DNA of 64,000 bases, taken from positions 76,095 to 140,094 of the forward strand of contig JAZRHI010000015.1 of NCBI GenBank assembly GCA_045644685.1, read 5' to 3'. The notes below the pieces were generated by a model. It was not told where the DNA came from and ran no database searches. It was given only the letters and a program-made list of their open reading frames with translations. The translations under genes and the position numbers were made by a program. This document shows positions 1,012-58,660 of this stretch, one piece after another; positions within the stretch are counted from its first letter, which is position 1; every line of letters begins with the position of its first letter. Origin of the DNA: Candidatus Onthomorpha sp. (GTDB lineage: Bacteria > Bacteroidota > Bacteroidia > Bacteroidales > P3).

Positions 1012-1116
1012 AAAATTCTCTTAGCTTTTTTGGATTTTTCCTAAGAAAAAAAATATTTTCTCTAAGAGATAATTTTCTAAACCTTAGGTTTAAAAAGATA
1101 AATCTAAGACATAAAA
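1012..1116. repeat. 21-nt-phased CTWAG mini-array A (5 units)
   Basis: Cores CTTAG 1020-1024, CTAAG 1041-1045, CTAAG 1062-1066, CTTAG 1083-1087, CTAAG 1104-1108, spaced exactly 21 nt. A/T-tract flanks. Lies between the convergent ALDH and M16 genes and abuts hairpin 1117-1145. Confidence 0.9.
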
Positions 1117-1145
1117 AAAGGGAACGGCTAATTGCCATTCCCTTT
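1111..1145 (-). terminator. Intrinsic terminator of the M16 peptidase gene
   Basis: Stem GGGAA(C)GGC 1120-1128 pairs with GCC(A)TTCCC 1134-1142, loop TAATT. On the minus strand it is followed by a T-run (plus-strand A-run 1111-1119). Confidence 0.7.
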
Positions 1146-1164
1146 CAATCTATTAGTTTTCCAA

Positions 1165-4024: not shown

Positions 4025-4240
4025 TTATTCATTTAATTCATCTGTATATTCTAAAATATCTCCTGGTTGGCAGTCTAAAACTTTGCAAATGGCTTCTAAG
4101 GTTGAGAATCTTATGGCTTTGGCTTTCCCTGTTTTGAGATTAGACATGTTTGCAGGCGTTATGTTTACCTTGGCAGATAATTCGCCCAAGGTAATCTTCC
4201 TTTTTGCCATCATCATATCTAAATTTACTATTATTCCCAT
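4025..4240 (-). CDS. Small XRE-type HTH transcriptional regulator (YozG-like)
   Basis: 71 aa. KRKITLGELSAKVNITPANMSNLKTGKAKAIRFSTLEAICKVLDCQPGDILEY is the typical short HTH regulator that pairs with DUF2975 membrane proteins. Confidence 0.8.
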   Translation of the reverse strand: MGIIVNLDMMMAKRKITLGELSAKVNITPANMSNLKTGKAKAIRFSTLEAICKVLDCQPGDILEYTDELNE

Positions 4241-4246
4241 ACAACC

Positions 4247-4942
4247 TTAAATTGTTAAGTCGTTTTCTTGTTGTAGGCTTATGCCTTTTTTAAAGATATC
4301 TACCATAACGTAGAATAACATACCTATTAGTATATATTCCCATGAAATTTGAGAAAGCCCAAATTCAGGAACAATGTTTAATTCTTGTATTTGTAGGTAT
4401 GTTTTCAAAAATATCTTGTCTGAAATATATACTAAGAGTTCTAAAATAGGTAACACTATAAAACTAAACGATATATATTTCATGCGTTTTATGTTTTTGT
4501 CGGTAAAGACACAGTGTCCTAATGAAACTTCTCCTGATTTGAATCCTTTATAAACCGAGTTTACAATATTCCTTATTTGTATTATTTGGAATAAAAGAAA
4601 CAATATGCTTATGTTAAGTGTAATTACATAAAATAATTTTAAGAGAATGGCAGAGAAACTATTGCTATGAATATCTATATCGTAGGCTACTTTTATTCCT
4701 TCTGGTTTTAGATGAATTGTAACGTCTTTTAGATTAGAAGGAATCTCGCCTTGAAGTTCAATAGATGTGTTTTCGTTTTGTTCAATTATGGCATAGCCCT
4801 TGGAAAATATCTCATTATCGTTTGCAATGCCTAAAACAAAAGCAAGTAGCAAAATAATCAGTGATAAAGATATAAGAATTATAGCTGCATCGAATAGTAT
4901 TTTGATACTTTTTATTGTTAATATTTTCTTTTTTATATTCAT
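4247..4942 (-). CDS. DUF2975-like multi-pass membrane protein
   Basis: Track start 4963 is a TTG overlapping a TAnnTTTG box. First ATG is at 4942 (MNIKKKILTIK...). Several hydrophobic helices. 6-nt gap to the downstream HTH gene (the usual DUF2975-YozG pair). Confidence 0.6.
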   Translation of the reverse strand: MNIKKKILTIKSIKILFDAAIILISLSLIILLLAFVLGIANDNEIFSKGYAIIEQNENTSIELQGEIPSNLKDVTIHLKPEGIKVAYDIDIHSNSFSAILLKLFYVITLNISILFLLFQIIQIRNIVNSVYKGFKSGEVSLGHCVFTDKNIKRMKYISFSFIVLPILELLVYISDKIFLKTYLQIQELNIVPEFGLSQISWEYILIGMLFYVMVDIFKKGISLQQENDLTI

Positions 4943-4968: not shown

Positions 4969-4998
4969 TAATGATTTTTAATAACTGCCAAATTTTTT

Positions 4999-5016
4999 AC
5001 GATAAATTTTTATCGT
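4999..5016. promoter_or_regulatory. Palindrome ACGATAAA-TT-TTTATCGT, candidate operator
   Basis: Perfect 8+8 inverted repeat about 30-50 nt upstream of the -7 box of the operon that encodes the XRE-type regulator. No adjacent U-run, so it is not a typical terminator. Confidence 0.3.
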
Positions 5017-5050
5017 TTATCAATAAATATTTGTCTTTTTTCGGTAAAAT

Positions 5051-5653: not shown

Positions 5654-6202
5654 TTATTCAGCTGGTGTTTCAGTTGCTTCTGCTGCTACTTCTTCGGTTG
5701 CAGGAGCTTCTTCTGCTGTTTCTGCAGCTACTGCCGCTGCTGCTTCTTCTCTTTTCTTAGCTATAGCTGCTGCTTTTGCTGCATTAACTTCTGCTTCTTT
5801 TGCTAAACGTTGTTTAGCGTCTTCTTTTTGTGCGTTTCTGCAAGATTCTTGTTTAGCAGATATTTTGTTGTTCTTTTCAAGTAACCAAGCTTCAAATTTT
5901 TTGTCTGCTACATCTTGTGTAATTGCGCCTTTTTCAACTCCAATTTGTAAGTGTCTTTTTAATAACACCCCTTTGTATGACAAAATGTTTCTTGCTGTTT
6001 CTGTTGGTTGAGCTCCGTTTTTCAACCATGTGCAAGCGCTATCTACATTCAAGTCAATAGTTGCAGGGTTTGTCATTGGGTCGTATGTTCCCAACTTTTC
6101 AATAAATTTTCCATCACGTGCTGCACGAGCATCCGCAACAACGATATGATAAAAAGGTGCTCCTTTTTTACCGTGACGTTGTAATCTAATTTTTACTGCC
6201 AT
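5654..6202 (-). CDS. rpsP: 30S ribosomal protein S16 with long Ala/Glu/Lys-rich C-terminal tail
   Basis: [42 protein letters not shown] is canonical bS16. A roughly 90-aa charged tail follows. Confidence 0.95.
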
Positions 6203-7666: not shown

Positions 7667-7674
7667 CAAAGGTA
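7667..7674 (-). promoter_or_regulatory. -7 box (TACCTTTG) only 5 nt from the ATG of the Ig-like lipoprotein gene
   Basis: The minus strand reads TACCTTTGcaaatATG, which implies a leaderless or near-leaderless mRNA if the box is used. Confidence 0.35.
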
Positions 7675-7684
7675 AGAAATAAAT

Positions 7685-7768
7685 TTCGTTTTCTTAGGTT
7701 TAGAAAAATATTTCTTAGGTTTAGAAAATTATTCCTAAGGATTAAAAAAATAACTCTTAGCTTTATTT
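7685..7768. repeat. 21-nt-phased CTWAG mini-array B (4 units)
   Basis: Cores 7693-7697, 7714-7718, 7735-7739, 7756-7760 (21-nt spacing). The fourth unit is the left arm of the 18-bp hairpin, whose right arm carries CTAAG 7782-7786. Confidence 0.92.
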
Positions 7769-7793
7769 GAGCAATATAAAGCTAAGAGTTATT
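7741..7793 (-). terminator. Strong intrinsic terminator of nhaD built from two inverted repeat units
   Basis: Perfect 18-bp stem, 7749-7766 with 7776-7793, 9-nt loop. T-run follows on the minus strand (plus-strand A-run 7744-7750). Confidence 0.8.
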
Positions 7794-9149: not shown

Positions 9150-11123
9150 TTATTTTCTTCTTTGTTGTTGCTTTTGTCTTTCTGCAAGTATGGCTTGATT
9201 TTGTTTTTCTAAGGCTTCTATTCTTTGTTGCCATTTTGATTTCTTTAATGGCTTCTTTGCGTTTGCTTCTAAACGTTGCAACACTTTTTTCTCGTCAATT
9301 GTTTTTCTGATTATAAACATTTGCAAGAATGTAAAGCACAATGAAATGAAGTAATAGTAGTTTAAGGCTGCCGAGAAGCTGTTAAAGATAAACAACATCA
9401 TAATTGGCATAAAGTACATCATAAATTTCATTCCAGGCATCGTTTGTGTTTGCGCTTGTTGTTTCATTGAAATGTGTGTGTACACAAGTTGTGCTACTGT
9501 CATAAGTAAACAGAACAAAGAAATATGGTTTCCATAGAACGGAATATTGAATGGTAAATTCAAAATCGAATCGTAAGTTGATAAGTCATCAGCCCAAAGG
9601 AACGATTGTTGTCTTAACTCAATTGAAGCTGGGAAGAAACGGAACATAGCAACCAAAATAGGGAATTGAATCAACATTGGCAAACATCCAGCCATAGGTT
9701 TAATTCCCGCTCTCTTGTAAAGATTCATCACAGCCTGTTGTTTTTGCATTGCTTGTTCTTGTTTAGGATATTTTTCGTTGATTTTTTGAACCTCAGGTGC
9801 GATAACTTTCATTTTAGCCGTAGAGGCAAATTGTTTATATGCTAATGGGAATAACACAATCTTTACAAGAATTGTAAGAATCAAGATAATCAATCCCATA
9901 CTCCAACCAAAACTTTGTAAAAAGTCAAAGACAGGAATAATTACGAAACGATTTATCCATTGAAGTAAGAAAAATCCCCAGCCAAGTGGTATTATTTCTT
10001 CCATTTGCATGTTGTAGTCGCTAATAATTGCGTATTTGTTAGGTCCAAAGAAGAATTCCATATCGTATTCGTAGTGATTTTTTTCTTTGTTGTAAGGAAT
10101 GCTAATGTTAGAAGACATTGTACGAAGGTAATTGTCCTTTTCGCCTTTTTCTGTCTGAGTTTGCATTGTAGAAGATATGAATCCCTCACCTGTTGTTGCG
10201 ATTAGGGCTGTTGAAAAGAATTGTTGCTTATAAGAAATCCATTTAATAGGAACTCCATTCTCTTCTTTCTTGTCATCAACTCCGTTTTCCTTCAAATATT
10301 CTACTTCATCTTTTAGTAGATAGTAAAGAGATGTGCTTTTGTTTTCAACACTTCCGTCTTTTTCTTTCATTCTTAATTTAGATTCCCATACGAATTCTAA
10401 ATTGCTATCGTCATTTATTACTTCATTTAGGTTGTGTGATATGATATCAAAGCCAACTCTATAATCGTTTCCTTTGATTGTGTAACGATATTCAAGGAAT
10501 GAGGCGTCTTTTGAAACAGAATCTAATTGGTTTGCATAAATACGCATGCTAACTACGACAGAGTCGTTAGTGTTTACTTTGATTGGTGTGCTCTTGTCGT
10601 AGATTTGATTATTAACTAATAGCTCGAAGTTAATTTCTCTTGTTTGTAATAGTTTTGAACCTAAGGAAAGATTTAATCCGTAATTGTTTCCGCCTTTTGT
10701 AAAGAACCTTACGCTATCTTGATAGTAGGTTTTGTATTCTGAAAGATAGACTTGTTCAATTTTTCCTCCTAATGTGTTGAACTCAATGCGGAATAGGTCG
10801 TTTTCTACAAATAAATGTTTTTCGGGATTTAAAGCTGCTTGTGAGAATGCTCCAAAATAATATTCTAATTCTTTTTGTGCGTTAGCTGCTAAGGAGTCTT
10901 CTCCTTTTGCTGCTTTGATAATTTGTTTTAGTTCTTGTTCTTTTGTGATAGGATTGGCAGTTGCTTTTAGGGCTTCTTTACTTTCTTTTTTTTGTACAGC
11001 TAATACTGAATCTTGTTTTCGTTTTATTTCTGCTCTTTCTTCTTCTGAGGGTTGTACCATATACATCCACGCAGTCATAACAGCAAAAATCAAAACTAAT
11101 CCAATAATCGTCTTTTTGTCCAT
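9150..11123 (-). CDS. yidC: Membrane protein insertase YidC (long Bacteroidota form)
   Basis: 657 aa. N-terminal TM helix, large periplasmic domain, and a C-terminal YidC/Oxa1 core (LFPLAYKQFASTAKMKVIAPEVQKINEKY..., MAGCLPMLIQFPILVAMF). Confidence 0.9.
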   Translation of the reverse strand: MDKKTIIGLVLIFAVMTAWMYMVQPSEEERAEIKRKQDSVLAVQKKESKEALKATANPITKEQELKQIIKAAKGEDSLAANAQKELEYYFGAFSQAALNPEKHLFVENDLFRIEFNTLGGKIEQVYLSEYKTYYQDSVRFFTKGGNNYGLNLSLGSKLLQTREINFELLVNNQIYDKSTPIKVNTNDSVVVSMRIYANQLDSVSKDASFLEYRYTIKGNDYRVGFDIISHNLNEVINDDSNLEFVWESKLRMKEKDGSVENKSTSLYYLLKDEVEYLKENGVDDKKEENGVPIKWISYKQQFFSTALIATTGEGFISSTMQTQTEKGEKDNYLRTMSSNISIPYNKEKNHYEYDMEFFFGPNKYAIISDYNMQMEEIIPLGWGFFLLQWINRFVIIPVFDFLQSFGWSMGLIILILTILVKIVLFPLAYKQFASTAKMKVIAPEVQKINEKYPKQEQAMQKQQAVMNLYKRAGIKPMAGCLPMLIQFPILVAMFRFFPASIELRQQSFLWADDLSTYDSILNLPFNIPFYGNHISLFCLLMTVAQLVYTHISMKQQAQTQTMPGMKFMMYFMPIMMLFIFNSFSAALNYYYFISLCFTFLQMFIIRKTIDEKKVLQRLEANAKKPLKKSKWQQRIEALEKQNQAILAERQKQQQRRK

Positions 11124-11230: not shown

Positions 11231-12535
11231 TTATTTCTTAATAAAGATTTTAGATTTGCTCATCCACATCATTAACAAACTTCTTCCTGATAAGTAAATT
11301 AGAAAGGCTAACCATAGGGCGTTGTTGCCAATTAAAGGGGTGAGAGTGAAATATATAAGAAAAAAAAGTAGGGTTGAAATAAAGATTGCATTTCTCATTA
11401 TAACAGATTCTGTTAATCCGATAAGAATTCCGTCATATAGGAAAGCGATAAAGCCGGTTATAGGAATTAGTAAAATCCAGTAAAGGAATTTTGTAGAATA
11501 TTCAAGAACGTCTTTATTATCTGTAAATATCATTAAGATGTTTTCGCCAAAAATGGCATATATAATAATGAATAGAATTGATATTGCACTACCCCACAAA
11601 AGGAAGCGTTTGACATAGTTCTTTAATAGGTTGTAATTGTTTTCGCCTTTGGCTTTTCCGCAGAGAGATTCGGCAGCGTAGGCAAATCCGTCCATGAAAT
11701 AGGAGAATAGGGTAAAGAATTGCATTAAAAGGGTGTTCATTGCTAAGGTCGGATATGGCATTTTGGTAGATGCTATGGTGAAATAGCTTGTTACTATTAT
11801 CAAACAGAGTGTTCTTAGAAAGATATCGGAATTTACTTTGAAGAATAGTTTCATCTTTTCTAAGGAAAGGGCTTTTTTTAGGTTGAAATATTTTGTTATG
11901 TTTCCGTATTTCTTTCTCCATATTATGAGTGTGGTAATCAATCCTCCGTATTGTGCTATCACTGTGCCTAAGGCTACTCCTTTTATCGACATATTGCAAT
12001 AGAATACAAGGATGAAGCTGAATGCTATGTTGAGTATGTTGATTATTATCGAAATCCACATCGGGTTTTTCGAGTCTTGCATTCCTATGAACCAGCCTTT
12101 GAGTGCGTACATGCCGAGTGTGGCTGGCGCTGCCCAGATTCTGATTGAGAAATAGCTGAGTGCTAATGCTCCGACTGAGTTTTTGTCTTCTATTAGCATG
12201 AGAGAGAGTTTGCCGATGGGCTTTTGGAAGACTATTAGTAAGAATGCGGCTGCGATTGCAATGAAGCTTGCTCTTAAAAGTATGTTTGCTTGTTCTTGAA
12301 CGTCTTTTGAGCCGTATGCTTGTGCGGTAAATCCGCTTGTTCCCATTCTTAGAAATCCGAAGTTCCAATAAATGATATTGAAAATCATGGTTCCAACGGC
12401 TATTGCTCCAATATAGTCTATGCCGTCGCCATTATTTAGGTGTCCAACAATGGCTGTATCGACCATTCCTAAAAGAGGAACGGTTATGTTGGTGATAATG
12501 TTTGGTATTGCTAATCTTAGGATTTGCTTGTTCAT
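11231..12535 (-). CDS. MATE-family efflux transporter
   Basis: 434 aa, 12 predicted TM helices. N-terminus ILRLAIPNIITNITVPLLGMVDTAIVGHL is typical MATE. The start shares one nt (TAATG) with the upstream gene's stop. Confidence 0.85.
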   Translation of the reverse strand: MNKQILRLAIPNIITNITVPLLGMVDTAIVGHLNNGDGIDYIGAIAVGTMIFNIIYWNFGFLRMGTSGFTAQAYGSKDVQEQANILLRASFIAIAAAFLLIVFQKPIGKLSLMLIEDKNSVGALALSYFSIRIWAAPATLGMYALKGWFIGMQDSKNPMWISIIINILNIAFSFILVFYCNMSIKGVALGTVIAQYGGLITTLIIWRKKYGNITKYFNLKKALSLEKMKLFFKVNSDIFLRTLCLIIVTSYFTIASTKMPYPTLAMNTLLMQFFTLFSYFMDGFAYAAESLCGKAKGENNYNLLKNYVKRFLLWGSAISILFIIIYAIFGENILMIFTDNKDVLEYSTKFLYWILLIPITGFIAFLYDGILIGLTESVIMRNAIFISTLLFFLIYFTLTPLIGNNALWLAFLIYLSGRSLLMMWMSKSKIFIKK

Positions 12536-13248
12536 TATTTCTTTTTTGAAAATAATGAGGTGTAGTATTTATAGTGCCATATAATATGTATAAGGGCGAT
12601 AATCGTCATGGCAATTCCAAATTCAACGTGCCATTTCAAAAAGTCTCTATACCAATCCATGCAGAAACCATAGTTTATCTGTAATGCCAAAATAAATCCC
12701 AATAGACAAGAAACTAAGAATGTTAAAAGAAGAATTACATTCCATAGTTTTCTGTGAGTAAGCTTTTTTATCTTGTTTGTTTTGACTAAGATATAGGTTG
12801 TAAGGTAAGCAATCAAAACGGCAATCGTTATGGCAATTATGCGATATGGCTTCTTTGATTTTTTTTCCTTAGGTTTAGAAAAATTTTCCTTAGGAATATT
12901 TTTTTCTTCCTTAGGAATAATTTTTTCTTCCTTAGAGATATTTTTTTCTGTCTTTACAACGTCTTTTTCTTGTGTAGAAATTGTTGTTTTCTTTGGTGTG
13001 ATTTCTATTTCTTTTTTTGTTTCAATCGGTGCAACCTCTGTTTGAGTTTCTGTTGTTGGCTCTTGGCTTTGGGTTAATCCGTTGTCGCAAAATGAATCTT
13101 CGTTTTCATCAATAAATCTGCCACACTCGCCTAAACAATTATACTTTTCGCCAAATGGACATTGTGCTTCAAGCGATAGAAATGCGAAAGAAAATAACGC
13201 AAAGCATAAAAGCGATAATAATCTCTTTGATTTAGTATTGGTTTTCAT
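12535..13248 (-). CDS. Hypothetical membrane protein (signal peptide, Cys-rich module, K/E-rich heptad linker, C-terminal TM helices)
   Basis: 237 aa. MKTNTKSKRLLSLLCFALFSFAFLSLEA signal and a CPFGEKYNCLGECGRFIDENEDSFCDNG module. The linker ISKEEKIIPKEEKNIPKENFSKPKEKK is encoded by mini-array C. Three hydrophobic helices at the C-terminus. Confidence 0.6.
   Translation of the reverse strand: MKTNTKSKRLLSLLCFALFSFAFLSLEAQCPFGEKYNCLGECGRFIDENEDSFCDNGLTQSQEPTTETQTEVAPIETKKEIEITPKKTTISTQEKDVVKTEKNISKEEKIIPKEEKNIPKENFSKPKEKKSKKPYRIIAITIAVLIAYLTTYILVKTNKIKKLTHRKLWNVILLLTFLVSCLLGFILALQINYGFCMDWYRDFLKWHVEFGIAMTIIALIHIIWHYKYYTSLFSKKK
12860..12943. repeat. 21-nt-phased CTWAG mini-array C (4 units) inside a CDS
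   Basis: CTTAG at 12868-12872, 12889-12893, 12910-12914 and 12931-12935. Read in frame on the minus strand (CCT AAG = Pro-Lys) as heptads of the 237-aa membrane protein. Confidence 0.9.
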
Positions 13249-13440: not shown

Positions 13441-14970
<1,530 letters not shown>

Positions 14971-19041: not shown

Positions 19042-19076
19042 GAAGAAGAAAAATAAAACATTCTTTTCAGAAATCA

Positions 19077-19118
19077 AAAGCCCAAAAGAATTTTGTCTTT
19101 TGGGCTTTTATTTTTTTT
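19077..19118 (+). terminator. Intrinsic terminator of the methylmalonyl-CoA mutase gene
   Basis: 13-bp stem AAAGCCCAAAAGA 19077-19089 with TCTTTTGGGCTTT 19096-19108, 6-nt loop, then TATTTTTTTT. Confidence 0.85.
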
Positions 19119-19134: not shown

Positions 19135-19197
19135 AAATAATCCTAAGAAATAAAAAATTAAACCTAAGGAAGAAAAAAATATTCCTTAGGAAAAAAA
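19135..19197. repeat. 21-nt-phased CTWAG mini-array D (3 units)
   Basis: CTAAG 19143-19147, CTAAG 19164-19168, CTTAG 19185-19189. Starts about 17 nt after the mutase terminator. A degenerate CTTTG sits in register at 19122-19126. Confidence 0.85.
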
Positions 19198-23617: not shown

Positions 23618-24367
23618 ATGGAAAAAAATCAAATAATCTACGGCTTACGTCCCGTAATGGAAGCAATAAAAGCGGGAAAACAAATAGACAAGATATATTT
23701 ACAAAGCAATTTGCAAGGAAAACTTTTCACAGAATTAAAAGCCTTGATAAAACAAAGCGGAAAGAATATTCAACAACAATATGTTCCTCTTGAAAAGCTT
23801 GACTATCTTTCAAGAAAACAAAATCATCAAGGAGTGGTAGCACAACTTTCTCAAATAGTTTATTGGGAACTTGAAGATATGCTTGAACATGCGGAAAGAA
23901 AAAGCACAAAGCCTTTCTTAATCTACCTTGATAATGTAACAGATGTTAGAAATCTTGGAGCAATAGCAAGAAGTGCCGAATGCGCAGGCGTAGATGGTTT
24001 GATAATTCCGCAACAAGGCTCAGCGCCTATAAATCAAGACGCAATAAAAACGTCAGCTGGTGCTTTATTAAGGCTACCTGTTTGCAGAATTAGCAACCTT
24101 AAAACATTTATCAATACAATCAAGGCACACGATATTAAAATCTATTCTGCAAGTGAAAAGGCTAACAGTTTATACACACAAGTTAATGCAGAAGAACCGC
24201 TAATGATAGTAATGGGTAGCGAAGAAAGCGGAGTAAGTCAAACAATGATAAAAATGTCTGACGAATTGATAAAAATACCTATGAATGGCGAAATAGAAAG
24301 TCTTAATGTTTCGGCAGCCGCTTCCGTATTGCTTTTCGAGGTTGTTAGACAGAGATTAGGAATTTAA
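23618..24367 (+). CDS. rlmB: 23S rRNA 2'-O-ribose methyltransferase, SpoU/TrmH family (RlmB-like)
   Basis: 249 aa. N-terminal substrate-binding domain (IYGLRPVMEAI) and the SpoU knot region (GSEESGVS...IPMNGEIESLNVSAAASVLLFE). Confidence 0.8.
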   Translation: MEKNQIIYGLRPVMEAIKAGKQIDKIYLQSNLQGKLFTELKALIKQSGKNIQQQYVPLEKLDYLSRKQNHQGVVAQLSQIVYWELEDMLEHAERKSTKPFLIYLDNVTDVRNLGAIARSAECAGVDGLIIPQQGSAPINQDAIKTSAGALLRLPVCRISNLKTFINTIKAHDIKIYSASEKANSLYTQVNAEEPLMIVMGSEESGVSQTMIKMSDELIKIPMNGEIESLNVSAAASVLLFEVVRQRLGI

Positions 24368-25257
24368 GCATTGCAAAAAACGCCTAACTTATATAAATTA
24401 AAAATAAAAAGACTTGGATTTTTTTTGGCAAGAAGGCTTAACATAAGTCTTCTTGTCATTTTAAAGAATAGGGCATATAATCCCACTAAATGTAGCCTTT
24501 CAAGACGGTTGTAAACACTTACAATTTTAATCCTTAGGATTATTTTTTTATTTCTTAGGTTTAATTTTTTATTTCTTAGGTTTAGAAAAATATTTCTTAG
24601 GTTTATTACAGCGTTTTCATTAGAAGAAATAAAATCCTCAAACTTCTTTAAACCTAAGTGTTCAACAGGATTGTCTATATTTAAGAAAGAAAATCCAATT
24701 TCTTCAAAATCACACTTAAATAAGGTGTCTTCGTGTCCGTAACCTTTGATGTCTTCACGAAAACGTATGGAAGAAAAAACCGATTTACGAATACAAAAGT
24801 TATTAGTTGTAAACATATCTTTGTTTTTCAAACCTTTGTTTGCTTCAATCAATGTTCCATACTTCCAATGTAGTTCATAGCCTTTTGGACATTTAGATTT
24901 TTCGCAATAAACCGTACCTCCTCTTACCAAATCCTTAGTTTCTATTTCGTTTAAATAACGTTTCAAGAAATCATCTCTTACAATCTTGCTGTCGCCGTCA
25001 AGAAATATTAAAATATCTCCCTTAGCCTCGTCAGCCAAAAGGTTTCTTATTCGTGAGCGACCAAGGTTTTCTTTCAGCTCTCTATAATCCACCTTGTCAA
25101 ATTGTGCAATAGCTTTGTTGTCTTCGCATTTTATTGGAGAACAATCGTCAAAGACTAAAATTTCATAATCACAACTTAATTCCTTTGCTTGCTTTACTAA
25201 GTCGTTTACTAAATTTACGCAATTTTCTTGATAGATAGGAATGAGTATAGAAAGCAT
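24364..25257 (-). CDS. Family-2 glycosyltransferase; the 3' quarter runs through mini-array E
   Basis: MLSILIPIYQENCVN... with FDD and a DxD-like FLDGDS motif. C-terminal NLRNIFLNLRNKKLNLRNKKIILRIKIV is array-encoded, so the true C-terminus is uncertain. Confidence 0.7.
   Translation of the reverse strand: MLSILIPIYQENCVNLVNDLVKQAKELSCDYEILVFDDCSPIKCEDNKAIAQFDKVDYRELKENLGRSRIRNLLADEAKGDILIFLDGDSKIVRDDFLKRYLNEIETKDLVRGGTVYCEKSKCPKGYELHWKYGTLIEANKGLKNKDMFTTNNFCIRKSVFSSIRFREDIKGYGHEDTLFKCDFEEIGFSFLNIDNPVEHLGLKKFEDFISSNENAVINLRNIFLNLRNKKLNLRNKKIILRIKIVSVYNRLERLHLVGLYALFFKMTRRLMLSLLAKKNPSLFIFNLYKLGVFCNA
24525..24608. repeat. 21-nt-phased CTWAG mini-array E (4 units) inside the GT2 ORF
   Basis: CTTAG at 24533-24537, 24554-24558, 24575-24579 and 24596-24600. 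Positions 24572-24605 are identical to 7690-7723. Confidence 0.92.
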
Positions 25258-28202: not shown

Positions 28203-28210
28203 CAAAGGTA
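28203..28210 (-). promoter_or_regulatory. -7 box (TACCTTTG) for the WecA/MraY-like gene cluster
   Basis: Reverse complement of caaaggta. 25 nt upstream of ATG 28178. Confidence 0.5.
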
Positions 28211-28211
28211 G

Positions 28212-28295
28212 TATTTTTCCTTAGAAAAAAAGCATATTTTCTAAGAATTAAGTTTTTTTATTTAAGGTTTGTGATTTTTTTTCTTAGGATTAAAT
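28212..28295. repeat. 21-nt-phased CTWAG mini-array F (3 canonical units plus 1 degenerate)
   Basis: CTTAG 28220-28224, CTAAG 28241-28245, degenerate TTAAG 28262-28266, CTTAG 28283-28287. Fills the space between divergent -7 boxes at 28203-28210 (minus) and 28305-28312 (plus). Confidence 0.85.
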
Positions 28296-28304
28296 TTTTT
28301 TTTG

Positions 28305-28312
28305 TAATTTTG
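28305..28312 (+). promoter_or_regulatory. -7 box (TAATTTTG) for guaA
   Basis: Exact TAnnTTTG match about 52 nt upstream of ATG 28364. Confidence 0.5.
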
Positions 28313-37113: not shown

Positions 37114-37199
37114 AAAAATAAGTCAAAGAAAAAATAAAATAAATCAAAGGAATAAAAAAATAAAACAAAGAAAAAATGAAAAAAAGCTTAGGAATATTT
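37076..37199. repeat. Degenerate 21-nt-phased array J (about 6 units) bridging two CDSs
   Basis: In-register pentamers CTAAA 37103-37107, CAAAG 37124-37128, 37145-37149 and 37166-37170, CTTAG 37187-37191. A TCTTTAAGGTTTAGAAA unit at 37081-37097 is about 2 nt off register. Confidence 0.55.
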
Positions 37200-43942: not shown

Positions 43943-45205
43943 TTATTCCGCAGCCTTAAAATTAAAGATAGGCTTAACTATATTTATAATATCAACTGTT
44001 TCAGCAGTGTTTTTAATAATTTCATCCATTGGTTTATAAACCATTGGTGCCTCATCCTTAGTTTCTTCCGTAATAGTTTCACTATATATTCCGTTCATAG
44101 ACGATTTAAAGTCGCTCATATTTATTTCCTTGAAAGCTTGGCTTCTGCTCATTATGCGTCCGGCACCGTGAGGAGCAGAAAAATTCCATTCTTCGTTACC
44201 TTTACCAATACAAATCAAAGAGCCGTCGCGCATATTCATAGGTATGATACATTTTTCTCCTTGATTGGCCGATATAGCTCCTTTGCGTATAATATTATCA
44301 TCGCCAATGTAATTGTGAATACTTTCAAAAGAATTTTCTAATACTTTGGCATACCCTTCCTTTACAAGAAAATCCATTAACAAATCAATGATTAACCTAC
44401 GGTTTATTACAGCCCATTGTTGGCAAAGGCGCATATCGTGGAGATAATCCTCGCGAAACCCTCCTTCAAGGTAAGATAAATCTGCTGGAATTAACGGTTT
44501 CTGCATCTTAAATGACGCATGTAATTTTGCAACTACCCCTTTAATCTCTTTTCTTTCCATGCCTTGCTCTTTACACTCGGCTATAATGCGTTGTTGTTCT
44601 TTCAATAAATCTTCCCAACCCGAATGATACTTTACCGCTAACTTTTGATAAATTTCTGCAACTTGCTTTCCTAAATTGCGACTGCCGGTATGGACTAACA
44701 AATAGTAGCCTTCGCTTTCGTCTTTTCCCACTTCAATAAAATGATTGCCACCTCCGAGAGAGCCAATCGAAGCATTGAGTCTTTTAGCGTATTTTAAATC
44801 TCTATAACAACGCAGTTGAGTAATCAAGCTCTTTGCTTCGCTATATCGTTCCATGTATTTTTGAGGCAAAGGTAAATACTCCTCGCTACGATTGTTTCTT
44901 CCAGAAGGTATTGCCTTTAATATGAATTCGTGAAACTTGTGAAAATCTATCTCTTTCAAACATTGAAACGGCTGTACCAATATTCCACATCCAATATCTA
45001 CGCCTACAATATTAGGAATGACCTTATCGCCTAAATTTCCTGTAAACCCAATAACACAACCTGCACCAGCGTGAACATCAGGCATAATACGCACTTTGCA
45101 ATTCTTAAATACATCAATAGACAACAGCTGTTTGATTTGCTCAATTGCGTTTTCGCCAACATTATCAGTAAAAATCTTTACATCGTATCCCTCTATTGTT
45201 TTCAT
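43943..45205 (-). CDS. rtcB: RNA 3'-phosphate/5'-OH ligase RtcB
   Basis: 420 aa. Conserved RtcB motifs MPDVHAGAG, GGGNHFIE, HTGSRNLG and APHGAGR. No rtcA, rtcR or archease nearby. Confidence 0.9.
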   Translation of the reverse strand: MKTIEGYDVKIFTDNVGENAIEQIKQLLSIDVFKNCKVRIMPDVHAGAGCVIGFTGNLGDKVIPNIVGVDIGCGILVQPFQCLKEIDFHKFHEFILKAIPSGRNNRSEEYLPLPQKYMERYSEAKSLITQLRCYRDLKYAKRLNASIGSLGGGNHFIEVGKDESEGYYLLVHTGSRNLGKQVAEIYQKLAVKYHSGWEDLLKEQQRIIAECKEQGMERKEIKGVVAKLHASFKMQKPLIPADLSYLEGGFREDYLHDMRLCQQWAVINRRLIIDLLMDFLVKEGYAKVLENSFESIHNYIGDDNIIRKGAISANQGEKCIIPMNMRDGSLICIGKGNEEWNFSAPHGAGRIMSRSQAFKEINMSDFKSSMNGIYSETITEETKDEAPMVYKPMDEIIKNTAETVDIINIVKPIFNFKAAE

Positions 45206-45221
45206 TATCTTTTTATTTAAA

Positions 45222-45305
45222 ATTTTTCTCTTAGGTTTATTAAAATAAAGCTAAGGAATAATTTTCTAAACCTAAGAAATAATTTTCTATCTCTTAGGTT
45301 TAAAA
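45222..45305. repeat. 21-nt-phased CTWAG mini-array G (4 units, mixed orientation)
   Basis: CTTAG 45230-45234, CTAAG 45251-45255, CTAAG 45272-45276, CTTAG 45293-45297. Units 2-3 are reverse complements of the canonical unit. The nearest core is about 25 nt upstream of the rtcB ATG. Confidence 0.92.
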
Positions 45306-45419
45306 AATAGAATAGGCTTTCTGTATTTTTAGCACCGATAAACGTGTCTTGATCGTAATAAGGGCTAAATATTAACTTCATGTTTTGTATATTAAATAAA
45401 TGTTTTAGGTTTTGTTTTG

Positions 45420-45427
45420 CAAAGTTA
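45420..45427 (-). promoter_or_regulatory. -7 box (TAACTTTG) about 215 nt upstream of rtcB
   Basis: Reverse complement of caaagtta. It would give a long leader covering a 54-codon sORF (45381-45217) and mini-array G. Confidence 0.4.
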
Positions 45428-45499
45428 AGATTATTTAAATAATAAATAAAAAAATGGAACTTTTATTTTAGAAAACTAATTCATGTAAAAAATTTGTTA

Positions 45500-45533: not shown

Positions 45534-45743
45534 ATGGAACAAAAAGAAGAAAAATTTATCTTTGGCGTAGTAAAGGTCGGAGATAAGGGACAGATAGTAA
45601 TCCCAAAGGAAGCAAGAAAGGTTTATGACATTAAATCGGGAGATGCACTCTTGCTATTAGGAGATAAAAATGGAATGGCGTTGGTGAAAACTCAAATATT
45701 TCAAAGTGCAGTTGATGATATAATGGAAGGACTTACGAAATGA
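45534..45743 (+). CDS. AbrB/MazE/SpoVT-type DNA-binding protein
   Basis: 69 aa. GVVKVGDKGQIVIPKEARKVYDIKSGDALLLL is a SpoVT-AbrB swapped-hairpin domain. ATGA overlap with the next gene. Confidence 0.7.
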   Translation: MEQKEEKFIFGVVKVGDKGQIVIPKEARKVYDIKSGDALLLLGDKNGMALVKTQIFQSAVDDIMEGLTK

Positions 45744-46858
45744 GAAAGCATTGGTTAGATAATTTGCGTTGGATAATCGTGCTTTCGGTTTTGTTTTATC
45801 ACGTTATATATTTCTATAATAATAAAGGAGTATTCGGAGGCATAGGAGGATTTGGAGGAAATCAATATCAGGATATTGTAATGTATGTTTTGTATCCTTG
45901 GTTTATGATGTTGATGTTTCTAATTGCAGGAATTAGTTCGCGATATAGTTTAGAAAAACTTTCTTCTAAACAATTCTTTAATTCAAGGACAAGAAAACTT
46001 TTAGTGCCTGCAACGTTGGGCTTGTTTTTCTTTCAATGGGTTACAGGATATTTTAACTCTCAGGTAACAGAATACGCAATGGGTTCTTCGCTTTTGCCAG
46101 AAGAAATGCCTGTTTTTATAAAATATTTCATTTGGTCTATATCTGGCATTGGCCCTCTTTGGTTTATTCAGGATCTTTGGTTGTTTTCAATTATTCTTAT
46201 TTTGATTCGCAAGATTGATAAAAAGGATAGATTATGGCAAGTGTGTGAAAAAACTTCATTTCTTATTGTTTTGCTTTTAGGTGTCTTGATTTACATAGGT
46301 TCTTTTACTCTTATTTCAAATCCAAGAGCGGAATCAATGGATGGTCTTTTGAATTTGTATAAGCCACTTAGCTATTTAATTCCTTTCTTAATGGGTTATT
46401 TTGTTTTCTCTCACGAAAAGGTGCAAGCGATGTTGGGTAAATATTCTATTTATCTAATGTCTGTCGCGATTGTTTTGGGAATTTTGCTCTCTATACTTAC
46501 ATTTGGACAAGATAATACTTCGCCTCAATATCTTCAAAGCCCATTAAATATTGCTTATGCTTGGTTTATGATTTTGGGACTTTTGGGTGGGTTTTATCGT
46601 TACTTTAATTACACAAATCCTTTTGCGACTTATATGACTAAATCAAGCTTTGGGTTATATGTTGTTCATTATGTAGTGATTGCATCTTTTGGTTATATGA
46701 TGAAAGTACATACTTCGCTTCCTGTTTTTGCGATGTATGCAATACTGACTCTTGCAGTTTTTGTTTTATCTCCGCTTTTAAACGAAGTTTTACGCCGTAT
46801 TCCAATAGTAAGATATTGCGTTTTAGGAATAAAGCAAAGACCTACTCCAAGAAAGTAG
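45740..46858 (+). CDS. Acyltransferase family 3 membrane protein
   Basis: 372 aa, about 10 TM helices. N-terminus WLDNLRWIIVLSVLFYH is typical of acyltransferase_3. Confidence 0.75.
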   Translation: MRKHWLDNLRWIIVLSVLFYHVIYFYNNKGVFGGIGGFGGNQYQDIVMYVLYPWFMMLMFLIAGISSRYSLEKLSSKQFFNSRTRKLLVPATLGLFFFQWVTGYFNSQVTEYAMGSSLLPEEMPVFIKYFIWSISGIGPLWFIQDLWLFSIILILIRKIDKKDRLWQVCEKTSFLIVLLLGVLIYIGSFTLISNPRAESMDGLLNLYKPLSYLIPFLMGYFVFSHEKVQAMLGKYSIYLMSVAIVLGILLSILTFGQDNTSPQYLQSPLNIAYAWFMILGLLGGFYRYFNYTNPFATYMTKSSFGLYVVHYVVIASFGYMMKVHTSLPVFAMYAILTLAVFVLSPLLNEVLRRIPIVRYCVLGIKQRPTPRK

Positions 46859-47837
46859 AGCTATCGGTTAAGTTATTCTGTTTTAAGATTTTTGAATAGG
46901 AGAGATTTTCTGGTTTTATTATCTTAAAAGTGTACTGATGTTTGTTTGGGTTGGTTAATTTATCGGCTCTTAGACATGGATTAAGTGTTTTGAAATATTT
47001 GTAAGGACAATTAAGTTTTTTTGCAAAGGCTGGCATGTCTGTTACTGTGGAATCAATGGTTATTGTGTCGTATTCTAATGGCTGATAGCAGTCTTTTAAT
47101 CTTATATAAAAGCCATATTGTTGTGGGTTTTCTAATAGGATTTTGTATGCTAAGATTCTGTAAAAATAACGTGAGGTTTCTGTGTTTATGTGCAAGCCCC
47201 AATAGTCTTCACAGCCTTGTTTGTTCATTTGTTTCTTAACTCCTGCTTCTCCACAGTTGTATGCAGCACAGGTTAATGCCCAATTTCCTAAGCGACCATA
47301 AGAGGATTTTAAATATTTTACCGCTGCTTGTGTTGCTTTTCTTAAATCGTATCTTTCATCCCATTCATCTGTTACTTTTAATCCATAAGAAATTGCTGTT
47401 TTTGGTATGAATTGCCAAAATCCTGCGGCTTTTGCGGGAGACACTACGTTGGATAATGCGCTTTCTGCTACGGCTAAATATTTTAAGTCGTCATGTCCGC
47501 CAAATTCTTTTAAGTATTCTTCGATTTCTGGAAAGAATCTTGAACTTCTTTTAATGATTTGAAAGGTTGTTCCGTGTTGATACATTATTGAAGTTAGTTC
47601 TCTGTCTAATGCTTCTCTAACAAAAATGTTGTCTAACGGTACTTTTTCTTCGCAAAATGTTAATTCTTGTGGGAGAGGTGCTGAAAAATTGTGCAAATGC
47701 TCCATTATGGTGTTTTTATATACTTCTTCTTCGTCTGGTTTGTGCGTTGCCATTATGAAAAAGTTAAGGCTTATTGCGCATGTACTAAGTATTATTGCAC
47801 AAATACTTAATATTAGAGTGTAATTATTTTTCTTCAT
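46842..47837 (-). CDS. Lytic transglycosylase (SLT domain, MltD-like)
   Basis: 331 aa. Catalytic-Glu region LAVAESALSNVVSPAKAAGFWQF and AYNCGEAGV. 17-nt convergent overlap with the acyltransferase gene. Confidence 0.75.
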   Translation of the reverse strand: MKKNNYTLILSICAIILSTCAISLNFFIMATHKPDEEEVYKNTIMEHLHNFSAPLPQELTFCEEKVPLDNIFVREALDRELTSIMYQHGTTFQIIKRSSRFFPEIEEYLKEFGGHDDLKYLAVAESALSNVVSPAKAAGFWQFIPKTAISYGLKVTDEWDERYDLRKATQAAVKYLKSSYGRLGNWALTCAAYNCGEAGVKKQMNKQGCEDYWGLHINTETSRYFYRILAYKILLENPQQYGFYIRLKDCYQPLEYDTITIDSTVTDMPAFAKKLNCPYKYFKTLNPCLRADKLTNPNKHQYTFKIIKPENLSYSKILKQNNLTDSSTFLE

Positions 47838-52912: not shown

Positions 52913-52975
52913 TCTATTTCCTTAGAGATAATGGAAAAATCCTTAGGAATAATAAAATAATCCTTAGAAAAAATG
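52913..52975. repeat. 21-nt-phased CTWAG mini-array H (3 units)
   Basis: CTTAG at 52921-52925, 52942-52946 and 52963-52967. Lies between the rpmB terminator and the thioesterase ATG (52973). Confidence 0.85.
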
Positions 52976-58531: not shown

Positions 58532-58537
58532 AAACAG

Positions 58538-58567
58538 AAAAGCGGTTGATTTCAACCGCTTTTTTTA
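58538..58567 (+). terminator. Intrinsic terminator of the 1154-aa gene
   Basis: AGCGGTTG 58541-58548 pairs with CAACCGCT 58553-58560, 4-nt loop, then TTTTTTT. Confidence 0.85.
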
Positions 58568-58576
58568 TTTGTGTTA

Positions 58577-58660
58577 ATTTTTCTCTAAGAAATAATCCAT
58601 TTTCTCTTAGGAATATTTTTCTAATCCTTAGCTTTATTAAATTATTCCTTAGACTTATTT
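58577..58660. repeat. 21-nt-phased CTWAG mini-array I (4 units)
   Basis: CTAAG 58585-58589, then CTTAG at 58606-58610, 58627-58631 and 58648-58652. Starts 10 nt after terminator 58538-58567 and ends at the stop codon of the convergent arginase-fold gene. Confidence 0.9.

Follow-up and report, generated by a model that had tools for sequence, protein, structure and literature searches.

The repetitive extragenic palindromic sequences and bacterial interspersed mosaic elements (REP/BIME) of enterobacteria are bound by general DNA proteins (integration host factor, IHF, and gyrase), and the operator arrays of the omega repressor, Fur and MetJ are bound cooperatively and with tolerance of site orientation. 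The nucleoid proteins and repeat families that have been well studied in enterobacteria are missing from the Bacteroidales, in which the marking of transcription-unit boundaries is little understood. In this study, a 64,000-nucleotide stretch of a Bacteroidota chromosome (the window) was found to carry ten short arrays (A to J) of an AT-rich unit with a CTWAG core, in which the cores lie 21 bp apart and the units point in either direction. Arrays of this type were not described in the searchable literature; the nearest was BrickBuilt of Porphyromonas gingivalis, described as a minisatellite that lies in a transposable element of the miniature inverted-repeat class, or MITE (PMC4596501).

The arrays are read here, with a probability of about 0.45, as phased recognition arrays for a roughly symmetric DNA-binding factor that have partly spread by copying. 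Parallel changes of the core in place, the held phase and a symmetric skeleton together suggest that a trans-acting factor reads the core from one face of the helix; the tolerance of orientation and the above-average conservation agree with such a reader. We infer from these observations that a protein reads the core, and likewise that such a protein has a role. At the same time, block copying, gain and loss of units, presence or absence of whole arrays and the copies in coding sequence show in the family the spread and turnover of selfish repeat DNA as well.

Unit anatomy, register and polarity

The unit was characterised in a sample of about 64 non-redundant units from about 250 kb in total, made up of the window and related contigs compared with it (designated by L-numbers), some loci having been found by a seeded pattern. 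The arrays contained 3 to 6 units with a period of exactly 21 bp, equal to two helical turns. In the window, CTWAG cores were separated by 21 nt in 24 pairs, by 42 nt in 16 and by 63 nt in 8, with all other distances occurring 0 to 2 times. The three-unit pattern matched 15 times and the four-unit pattern 7 times, compared with 0 matches in 100 dinucleotide-preserving shuffles of the window.

The unit was about 80% AT, and the arrays had a GC content of 15-24%, with nearly all G and C within or flanking the core. The consensus of the 64 non-redundant units, oriented by the centre base, was wwTTwTTY-CTTAG-GttTAwww. Beneath it lay a symmetric skeleton, TA-N3-(Y)CTWAG(R)-N3-TA, with Y preceding and R following the core; T at -7 and A at +7 were complementary in 86% of units, and TA steps were restricted to the core centre (0) and to +/-6.5. 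The polar part consisted of the three bases on either side of the core, which were T-rich on one strand, such that forward (F) units were T-rich and reverse (R) units A-rich.

An earlier note on this DNA had described array G as four units of changing orientation in an unbroken register. The four 21-mers that it quoted, atttttctCTTAGgtttatta, aaataaagCTAAGgaataatt, ttctaaacCTAAGaaataatt and ttctatctCTTAGgtttaaaa, were present exactly at 45222-45305 in the order F R R F, with cores CTTAG, CTAAG, CTAAG and CTTAG centred as it had said. The canonical 21-mer of which unit 3 was said to be the exact complement, aattatttCTTAGgtttagaa, did not occur verbatim on the plus strand, where the closest units agreed with it at 20 of 21 positions (centre 7716) and 19 of 21 (centre 24577); the reverse complement of unit 3 did carry CTTAGGTTTAGAA. 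The point about unit inversion is made more strongly by arrays B and G, which match exactly over 28 nt in inverted orientation. The features of array G and its neighbourhood are:

45222..45305, no strand assigned: array G, centres 45232-45295, order F R R F
45222..45242, plus strand: unit 1, F, CTTAG, centre 45232; direct copy of unit 4 (89%)
45243..45263, minus strand: unit 2, R, CTAAG, centre 45253; direct copy of unit 3 (90%)
45264..45284, minus strand: unit 3, R, CTAAG, centre 45274; inside the 28-nt exact inverted match to array B
45285..45305, plus strand: unit 4, F, CTTAG, centre 45295
45261..45308, minus strand: inverted pair of units 3 and 4, 21-nt arms, 90% complementary, 6 nt between them
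45226..45259, minus strand: second predicted hairpin, inverted pair of units 1 and 2
43943..45205, minus strand: rtcB, encoding an RNA ligase; 17 nt separate its ATG from the array G edge
45420..45427, minus strand: predicted Bacteroidetes-type -7 promoter box, TAACTTTG, kept in relatives

Polarity was not noise, as both the T-minus-A skew of the flanks and a leave-one-out flank matrix predicted the centre base. For the window only, the Fisher test gave p=0.016, the Mann-Whitney test p=0.0027 and the matrix 24 of 34; with the unseeded relatives added, the values were p=0.0008, p=0.00014 and 35 of 45, and the matrix predicted 54 of 64 when all units were used. Unit 2 of array G alone had a flank log-likelihood ratio of +9.8 in favour of R polarity. 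Flips also occurred without a shift of register: of 21 neighbouring pairs with opposite orientation, 17 had a distance of exactly 21 nt, as had 33 of 36 pairs with the same orientation. The earlier note would have given up its reading had flipped units always come with register shifts, or had the polarity been noise in the AT-rich flanks; since flank polarity was non-random and the register was held, neither was observed.

The order of orientations was near random with a slight excess of runs (FF 19, RR 12, RF 9, FR 8). Two kinds of flip were distinguished. One was a whole-unit inverted copy forming a long hairpin, as in units 3 and 4 of array G, and plain slippage cannot make such inverted units, as had been pointed out before. 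The other was a T/A change restricted to the symmetric core centre. The second kind was evident in array F, where the flanks share one polarity though the cores read CTAAG, CTTAA, CTTAG and CTAAG, so some apparent flips left the flanks unchanged. The earlier note had called the core symmetric about its centre, and the unit was seen to have a two-fold skeleton; a dimeric protein that binds it remains conjectural. The inverted alignment between arrays stays in register because the skeleton is symmetric about the core centre, and this symmetry gives a simple mechanical reason for flips to keep the 21-nt phase.

Settings, folding and reading frame of the arrays

The window has about 33% GC and carries a type IX secretion system (T9SS) sorting domain together with housekeeping genes, among which the ten arrays are dispersed at a density of about one site per 6-7 kb. 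No Rfam hits at the curated threshold and no tRNAs were found in it, and an exact look-up of one of its proteins returned no record. No transposase was present among the 20 of its approximately 48 proteins that were scanned against Pfam, no search aimed at a REP-associated tyrosine transposase (RAYT) having been made. The mixing of CTTAG and CTAAG cores previously reported for arrays A, B, D and I was confirmed. The nine arrays other than G, and one hairpin, are:

1012..1116, no strand assigned: array A, centres 1022-1106, five units in the order F R R F R; located where the ends of two convergent genes face each other, directly after a terminator hairpin at 1116-1146 (minus strand)
7685..7768, no strand assigned: array B, centres 7695-7758, four units F F R F; tandem genes
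7750..7792, minus strand: predicted CitMHS terminator hairpin, its arms being the unit at 7758 and an inverted copy at 7784
12860..12943, minus strand: array C, centres 12870-12933, four units F F F F; inside the gene at 12535..13248 (minus strand)
19135..19197, no strand assigned: array D, centres 19145-19187, three units R R F; 26 nt past a terminator at 19076-19109 (plus strand)
24525..24608, minus strand: array E, centres 24535-24598, four units F F F F; inside a family 2 glycosyltransferase (GT2) gene
28212..28295, no strand assigned: array F, centres 28222-28285, four units F R x F, x being a degenerate core
37116..37199, no strand assigned: array J, centres 37126-37189, three CAAAG cores and one CTTAG; between two operon genes
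52913..52975, no strand assigned: array H, centres 52923-52965, three units F F F; end 8 nt before the ATG at 52973
58577..58660, no strand assigned: array I, centres 58587-58650, four units in the order R F F F; flanked by the ends of convergent genes, 12 nt past a terminator at 58536-58565 (plus strand)

Divergent promoters flank F, L131, L133 and L030; the ends of convergent genes flank A, I, L130 and an array in L119; B, D, H, J and L129 separate tandem genes, and C, E, L128 and L077 are located inside genes. Scanned intrinsic terminators precede arrays A, D and I by 10-26 nt. The -7 box consensus of Bacteroidetes is TAnnTTTG, and the promoter assignments made here rest on it. Array F fills the gap between two divergent -7 boxes, at 28203-28210 (minus strand) and 28305-28312 (plus strand), and a -7 box beside array B at 7667-7674 (minus strand) overlaps a pseudo-core, GTAAG (centre 7674), that extends the 21-nt register. 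A role of the arrays as promoter -33 elements was rejected; the distance from the -7 box to the first core is about 21 nt in B but 12 nt in F (11 in L138), and promoters are missing near many arrays. A sigma-70 promoter scan detected no enrichment at arrays. The units had no consistent orientation relative to transcription, as would be expected of a symmetric reader acting at the DNA level. For arrays with co-directional flanking genes, the A-rich strand was mostly the sense strand in C, E, D and J and mostly so in B, H being the exception; in this very small sample, the pattern may reflect A-rich leaders favoured for translation start in Bacteroidetes.

Outside the window arrays, CTNAG was neither avoided nor enriched relative to expectation, CTWAG occurring about 127 times compared with about 132 expected (our own estimate from window counts and base composition). 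When a genome collection was scanned for four CTWAG cores spaced 21 nt apart, 116 of 118 loci among the matches listed were ordinary period-7 or period-21 tandem repeats of unrelated phyla, and among these matches only a metagenome-assembled genome (MAG) of Candidatus Onthomorpha gave look-alike arrays (L030, L077). A metagenome scan with a specific three-core pattern gave 9 loci, 4 of which were orthologues of window arrays. Thirteen matches in viral contigs were discarded, as they represented a single unrelated phage coding sequence without arrays. Iterons of a plasmid or origin were likewise rejected, as these form a single cluster of 17-22-bp direct repeats near a rep gene or origin, and the ten arrays are scattered over 64 kb of chromosome.

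Folding depended on the arrangement of the units. Inverted pairs folded strongly (minus strand of G, z=-6.4; B, z about -6; minus strand of I, z=-5.3), and single-orientation arrays folded no better than shuffles (E, z=-0.8). Units 3 and 4 of array G are predicted to form a long hairpin in the minus-strand, rtcB-sense transcript, and the two hairpins of that strand together reach -29.6 kcal/mol. They have no clean U-run and would lie in a 5' leader, as array G is placed inside the leader of rtcB by the predicted -7 box at 45420-45427. Array B starts with a hairpin whose arms are a unit and an inverted copy. This hairpin directly follows the CitMHS stop codon and is itself followed by a U-run, and its counterpart in L142 shows a compensatory C-G to T-A change; it is a credible terminator. 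The L119 array, which lies past rtcB between convergent genes, can form a two-way hairpin with A and T runs on either side.

Two arrays of the window are translated. Array C encodes a Lys/Glu-rich linker, KEEKIIPKEEKNIPKENFSKPKEKK, of a genuine membrane protein; it is missing in the sister lineage and arose in the window lineage with a 21-bp gain. Array E encodes INLRNIFLNLRNKKLNLRNKKIILRIK, and homologues of its protein differ by exactly 7 amino acids: the GT2 glycosyltransferase (24364-25257, minus strand) has 297 amino acids here and 290 in close relatives (homologues P0126, P0130), a difference of exactly one 21-bp unit (LNLRNKK) within the protein. Elsewhere, L128 has an array at 2351-2434 within an open reading frame (ORF), as the Lys-rich C-terminal tail of a 581-amino-acid protein with KPKEKN repeats, and L077 has one at 4172-4255 in an ORF whose product is probably orthologous, in Onthomorpha, to the array C protein.

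The frame CTW|AGR, which reads Leu-Arg in either orientation, was stop-free through 10 of 10 arrays on the plus strand and 7 of 10 on the minus strand. Only 1 of 440 spacer codons was a stop in this frame, compared with 87 of 792 in the other frames; the null expectations were 42+/-6.6 with shuffled spacers and 13+/-3.1 with permuted columns. The frame is open because TA steps are limited to three positions per unit, none of them on codon positions 1-2 of this frame on either strand, and we read it as a by-product of the DNA pattern. An open frame would make units harmless when they land or grow in genes. A 54-amino-acid ORF running through array G (within 45217-45462, minus strand) was rejected as a gene, as the region is replaced in relatives of 92% identity; its openness is explained by the same built-in property of the units.

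Several further features were noted around the arrays. A gene for a 69-amino-acid AbrB/MazE-type DNA-binding protein (45546-45755, plus strand) lies about 240 nt from array G, with no evidence tying it to the arrays, and its end overlaps the start of an acyltransferase gene (45740). Two intergenic segments of the window, 4994-5048 and 47771-47815, carry other 21-bp-period repeats without CTWAG cores, TTTTTTCGATAAATATTTATC and TTATTGCACAAATACTAAATA, the former containing small palindromes, cgataaatttttatcg. A period-21/33 repeat of GCAGCTACTTCTGCGGT type at 5678-5774, within the S16 ribosomal protein ORF (5654..6202), indicates a repetitive Ala-rich C-terminal extension.

Core change, copying and turnover among relatives

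The closest relatives of the window were uncultured Bacteroidales from animal-gut metagenomes. Contigs L119-121, L127, L132, L139 and L140 were syntenic with it at about 92% nucleotide identity and L126 and L134 at 98%, while L135, L137, L138, L141 and L142 were syntenic at greater distance, with neighbouring proteins 72-89% identical. In this last group, arrays occupied the A, B, E and F sites with CAAAG/CTTTG cores, only partially so in L137 and L138; the core is CTWAG in the window lineage, with which L119, L139 and Onthomorpha are grouped. L122, grouped with the CAAAG lineages, lacks synteny at the A, B, E and F loci and has a CTTTG-core array elsewhere. In at least seven units of the window lineage or L119 (F1, F4, E2/3, E4, two in B, and J1 in L119), CAAAG was changed to CTAAG, several of them also changing W to C immediately 5' of the core. 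Array J still has three CAAAG cores in the window, and its first unit reads CTAAG in L119. The flanks were plainly unaltered at F1, F4 and E4 while the core changed. These in-place changes across lineages suggest that the core is being read, and that block copying is not the whole cause.

The change in array E took place within a protein. In the GT2 gene, AAT-CAA-AGA became AAC-CTA-AGA and ATT-CAA-AGA became ATC-CTA-AGG, so that the Gln-Arg encoded by CAAAG in the sister lineages was altered from Gln to Leu, together with silent changes such as AAT to AAC. Such core changes are unexplained by pressure at the protein level and are explained by pressure at the DNA level on about 7 bp.

Array F was orthologous in five genomes, each with four units between the -7 boxes of guaA and of a GT4 glycosyltransferase gene, at neighbouring-protein identities as low as 72%. 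Across these orthologues the cores read CAAAG, CTTTG, CTTAG, CTAAG or TAAAG. Four of the genomes kept every spacer at 16 nt despite wide divergence of the spacers, and L132 had one spacer of 17 nt. In L138 the whole array was displaced by 1 nt from the -7 box with its internal spacing intact. The most conserved positions included the C that starts the core, the A beside the final G, and -7 to -5; the least conserved were the unit junctions and core position 2.

Compared with relatives of about 92% identity, identical positions numbered 105 of 105 in array B, 84 of 84 in E, 82 of 84 in F, 81 of 84 in J and 53 of 63 in H. Overall mismatch was 4.0% in arrays, 6.9% in other intergenic DNA and 8.1% in coding DNA. 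Changes of length among relatives involved whole units of 21, 42 or 84 bp. In H, L119 has an extra R unit, with spacings of 21, 22 and 21, and in A the difference amounts to two units. Past rtcB, L119 has an 84-bp array of four units and the window a single unit. Array G is present in L134 with two point changes and is missing in L119-121, where the stretch is replaced and a different 22-bp repeat is found. Neither the presence/absence junctions of G nor those of the 84-bp L119 array showed terminal inverted repeats or target-site duplication.

Sequence is also shared between loci. Exact blocks of 34 nt on the same strand linked B and E, and exact inverted blocks linked B and G (the 28 nt already mentioned), D and E (27 nt) and C and D (24 nt). 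These blocks span more than one unit, which indicates that sequence has been exchanged or pasted between arrays in either orientation. The minus strand of G aligned in register with the plus strand of B over a 49-nt central block with two mismatches. The L129 array was 85% identical to B though the locus is otherwise unrelated, and relative to L142, a spacer of B has become identical to a spacer of E. The constraint on core position rather than on unit sequence that the earlier note had suggested is only partly supported: cores hold position while core and spacer sequences change across species, but whole units and multi-unit blocks have been copied between loci, and retained arrays diverge less than other intergenic DNA.

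The relatives carry other repeats as well. Upstream of the rtcB -7 box in L119 (about 9770-9850), and likewise in L120 and L121, at a place where the window differs in sequence, three copies of a repeat with a 22-bp period occur as small palindromes of TCCAAGCGCGTTGGA type, which look like a second, REP-like family. L141 has an inserted RhuM-family gene (13498-14575), with the orthologue of array B on one side and a Big_5 gene on the other, and a promoter-proximal segment, cttaactttgcaaattatgaatagaat, is duplicated on either side of the insert. Distant relatives have intergenic tandem repeats of 21-22 bp with unrelated or CTTTG cores (L125 9112-9205, L122 4853-4950, L135 18515-18564), and seven-mer self-matches peaked at 21 or 22 nt in each related locus examined. 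A period of roughly two turns seems to be a habit of the clade that extends beyond CTWAG.

Explanations and known systems

If the arrays are recognition arrays, a roughly two-fold-symmetric factor would read the core on one helix face, whichever way the unit points, with cooperative binding from unit to unit; it could be a global regulator, an insulator-like protein or one associated with the nucleoid. Inverted duplication, template switching or conversion from another array would leave all cores in place, and a plain T/A change at the centre would mimic a flip. Several points weigh against this reading. The identical multi-unit blocks at different loci are explicable by copying without selection. 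For a regulator, it is odd that arrays also occur between convergent gene ends, within coding sequence (C, E, L128, L077) and, in one case, in a 5' leader. The indel rate of arrays, 10/kb, was not lower than the 7.5/kb of other intergenic DNA. Arrays were gained or lost between species of about 92% identity (G, and the extra L119 array), and the number of units varies (3 or 4 in H; 5, 3 or 2 in A; the two lengths of the GT2 protein). The sample is small, and no candidate protein emerged from the analysis. An extended form of the reading is doubtful: the arrays would be a genome-wide, two-turn-phased code, with about one array per transcription-unit boundary and a symmetric reader whose specificity moved from CAAAG to CTWAG, followed by hundreds of sites, some in genes. 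If true, the co-evolution of a reader and its dispersed sites would have been caught in progress. In a rarer version, the same signal would drive a sequence-biased process such as DNA uptake or recombination.

The main rival reading is a selfish or neutral dispersed minisatellite, whose units would be gained and lost by 21-bp slippage. Template switching at hairpins would flip them, conversion or insertion from other arrays would make them alike at different loci, and any function (terminator arms, spacers, Lys-rich protein linkers) would be an incidental reuse. The blocks common to arrays in both orientations, the likeness of the L129 array to B and the spacer shared by B and E agree with this, as do the whole-unit length changes, the presence or absence of arrays between close species, their occurrence in every type of setting (even in frame in genes) and the general excess of 21-22-bp tandem repeats with other cores in all relatives. 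We consider it unlikely as a full account, although by no means far-fetched, because the core changes at F1, F4 and E4 occurred in place with lineage-specific flanks intact and were therefore not copied in. Position, and in F unit number too, was also held down to 72% identity of neighbouring proteins; the 16-nt spacer length survived heavy divergence in indel-prone DNA of A/T runs; the arrays have remained short; and one clear insertion/deletion junction had no transposase, terminal inverted repeats or target-site duplication. A recognition role and selfish spread are not exclusive, and REP/BIME and uptake sequences combine the two. The same in-place changes, amino-acid-altering or silent, toward the motif at many orthologous sites could be produced by molecular drive if the motif were the signal of a sequence-biased DNA process (an uptake sequence, a repair or recombination motif, or paired sites of a methylation-dependent CTNAG binder), the lineage-specific core following a change in the specificity of the machinery. 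Inverted pairs that would act as terminators, motifs in coding regions and lineage cores that are variants of one another agree with such a signal, but known uptake signals are single dispersed copies rather than 21-bp phased arrays, and the CTWAG count outside arrays shows no excess, so it was judged improbable.

The hairpins raise an explanation at the RNA level, according to which inverted pairs would serve as terminators, 5'-leader attenuators or 3'-end stabilisers and the direct units would be mere company. The U-run and compensatory change of the B hairpin, the two-way hairpin of L119, the strongly folding leader hairpins of G and the starts of A, D and I shortly past terminators favour it. 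It has little probability: half of the arrays have all units in one orientation and form no fold, the direction of units with respect to transcription is inconsistent, the G hairpins have no good U-tract, B and F lie upstream of promoters and are probably untranscribed, and an exact 21-nt phase has no obvious meaning in RNA. A purely structural role, in which unit bends in phase would provide curved or flexible spacers between transcription units without a specific reader, would suit the two-turn period, the proximity of arrays to promoters and terminators, the favoured blocks of an A-run followed by a T-run and the fixed TA steps. It leaves unexplained both the best-kept C and G at the core ends and the parallel replacement of CAAAG by CTAAG, and is improbable. 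Least of all do we favour a coding constraint, with arrays that are, or stem from, translated heptad repeats. The stop-free CTW|AGR frame and the translation of C, E, L128 and L077 speak for it, yet most arrays have no start codon or do not share the frame of their neighbours, coding would not need both strands to be open as they are, and the translated arrays use two frames (Pro-Lys in C and L128, Leu-Arg in E). The observation reduces to the placement of TA steps, and the small ORF of G is missing in relatives of 92% identity; this explanation is very improbable.

The family joins phased, dispersed arrays that tolerate either orientation to a clean core switch between sister species, which offers a direct handle on boundary marking in the Bacteroidales. 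Comparison of the DNA-binding proteins of CAAAG and CTWAG lineages could name the reader, and the natural variants, with swapped cores, single units gained or lost, inverted units and whole arrays present or absent, form a mutational series. Even if they proved to be selfish DNA and nothing more, the arrays would clearly exemplify concerted minisatellite evolution across loci, with in-frame growth in genes.

Among known systems, BrickBuilt, whose minisatellite reportedly has a period of about 23 bp, resembles the arrays as an AT-rich tandem minisatellite dispersed in a Bacteroidales genome; it differs in being carried by a MITE with terminal inverted repeats, and neither terminal repeats nor target duplications were seen here. 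A MITE was accordingly rejected for the present arrays, as these defining features were missing at the junctions examined. Rickettsia palindromic elements (RPE) also place repeat DNA in frame in protein genes and between genes, but are palindromes of 100-150 bp, and in contrast to RPE and BrickBuilt the coding arrays here grew in place and were not inserted. The DNA uptake sequences (DUS) of Neisseria and uptake signal sequences (USS) of Pasteurellaceae share lineage variants that differ by 1-2 bases at orthologous sites and arose in place, inverted pairs that double as terminators, and tolerated copies in coding regions; they differ in being single copies, not phased arrays, and no excess of bare cores was seen in the window. 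The sites of LytTR response regulators are two 9-bp direct repeats 21 bp apart, [TA][AC][CA]GTTN[AG][TG], upstream of a promoter. They were rejected as a match because CTWAG and CAAAG disagree with this consensus, and because the arrays have both orientations, 3-6 units and many non-promoter settings.

Omega repressor heptads (pSM19035), Fur hexamer arrays and MetJ metboxes have a short core in direct or inverted copies at constant register, as was found here, and they are the closest match to the proposed mechanism. Their repeats are contiguous, 6-8 bp apart, and occur at few operators, whereas here the cores are separated by 16-nt AT spacers and arrays recur throughout the window, also in genes and between convergent ends. 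Like REP/BIME, the arrays are dispersed and mostly intergenic, often just past terminators or within operons, hold both unit orientations in one array at fixed spacing, have species-specific variants, and are gained and lost among close relatives. The REP unit is a self-folding imperfect palindrome of 20-40 nt, whereas here only inverted unit pairs fold; the unit is AT-rich and not a GC-rich hairpin, it recurs with a 21-bp period, and some copies are translated in frame. REP orientation alternates, and here it is mixed at fixed spacing. The proposed mechanism is most like that of the orientation-tolerant operator arrays (omega, Fur, MetJ), and the genomic behaviour of the family is most like that of REP/BIME.

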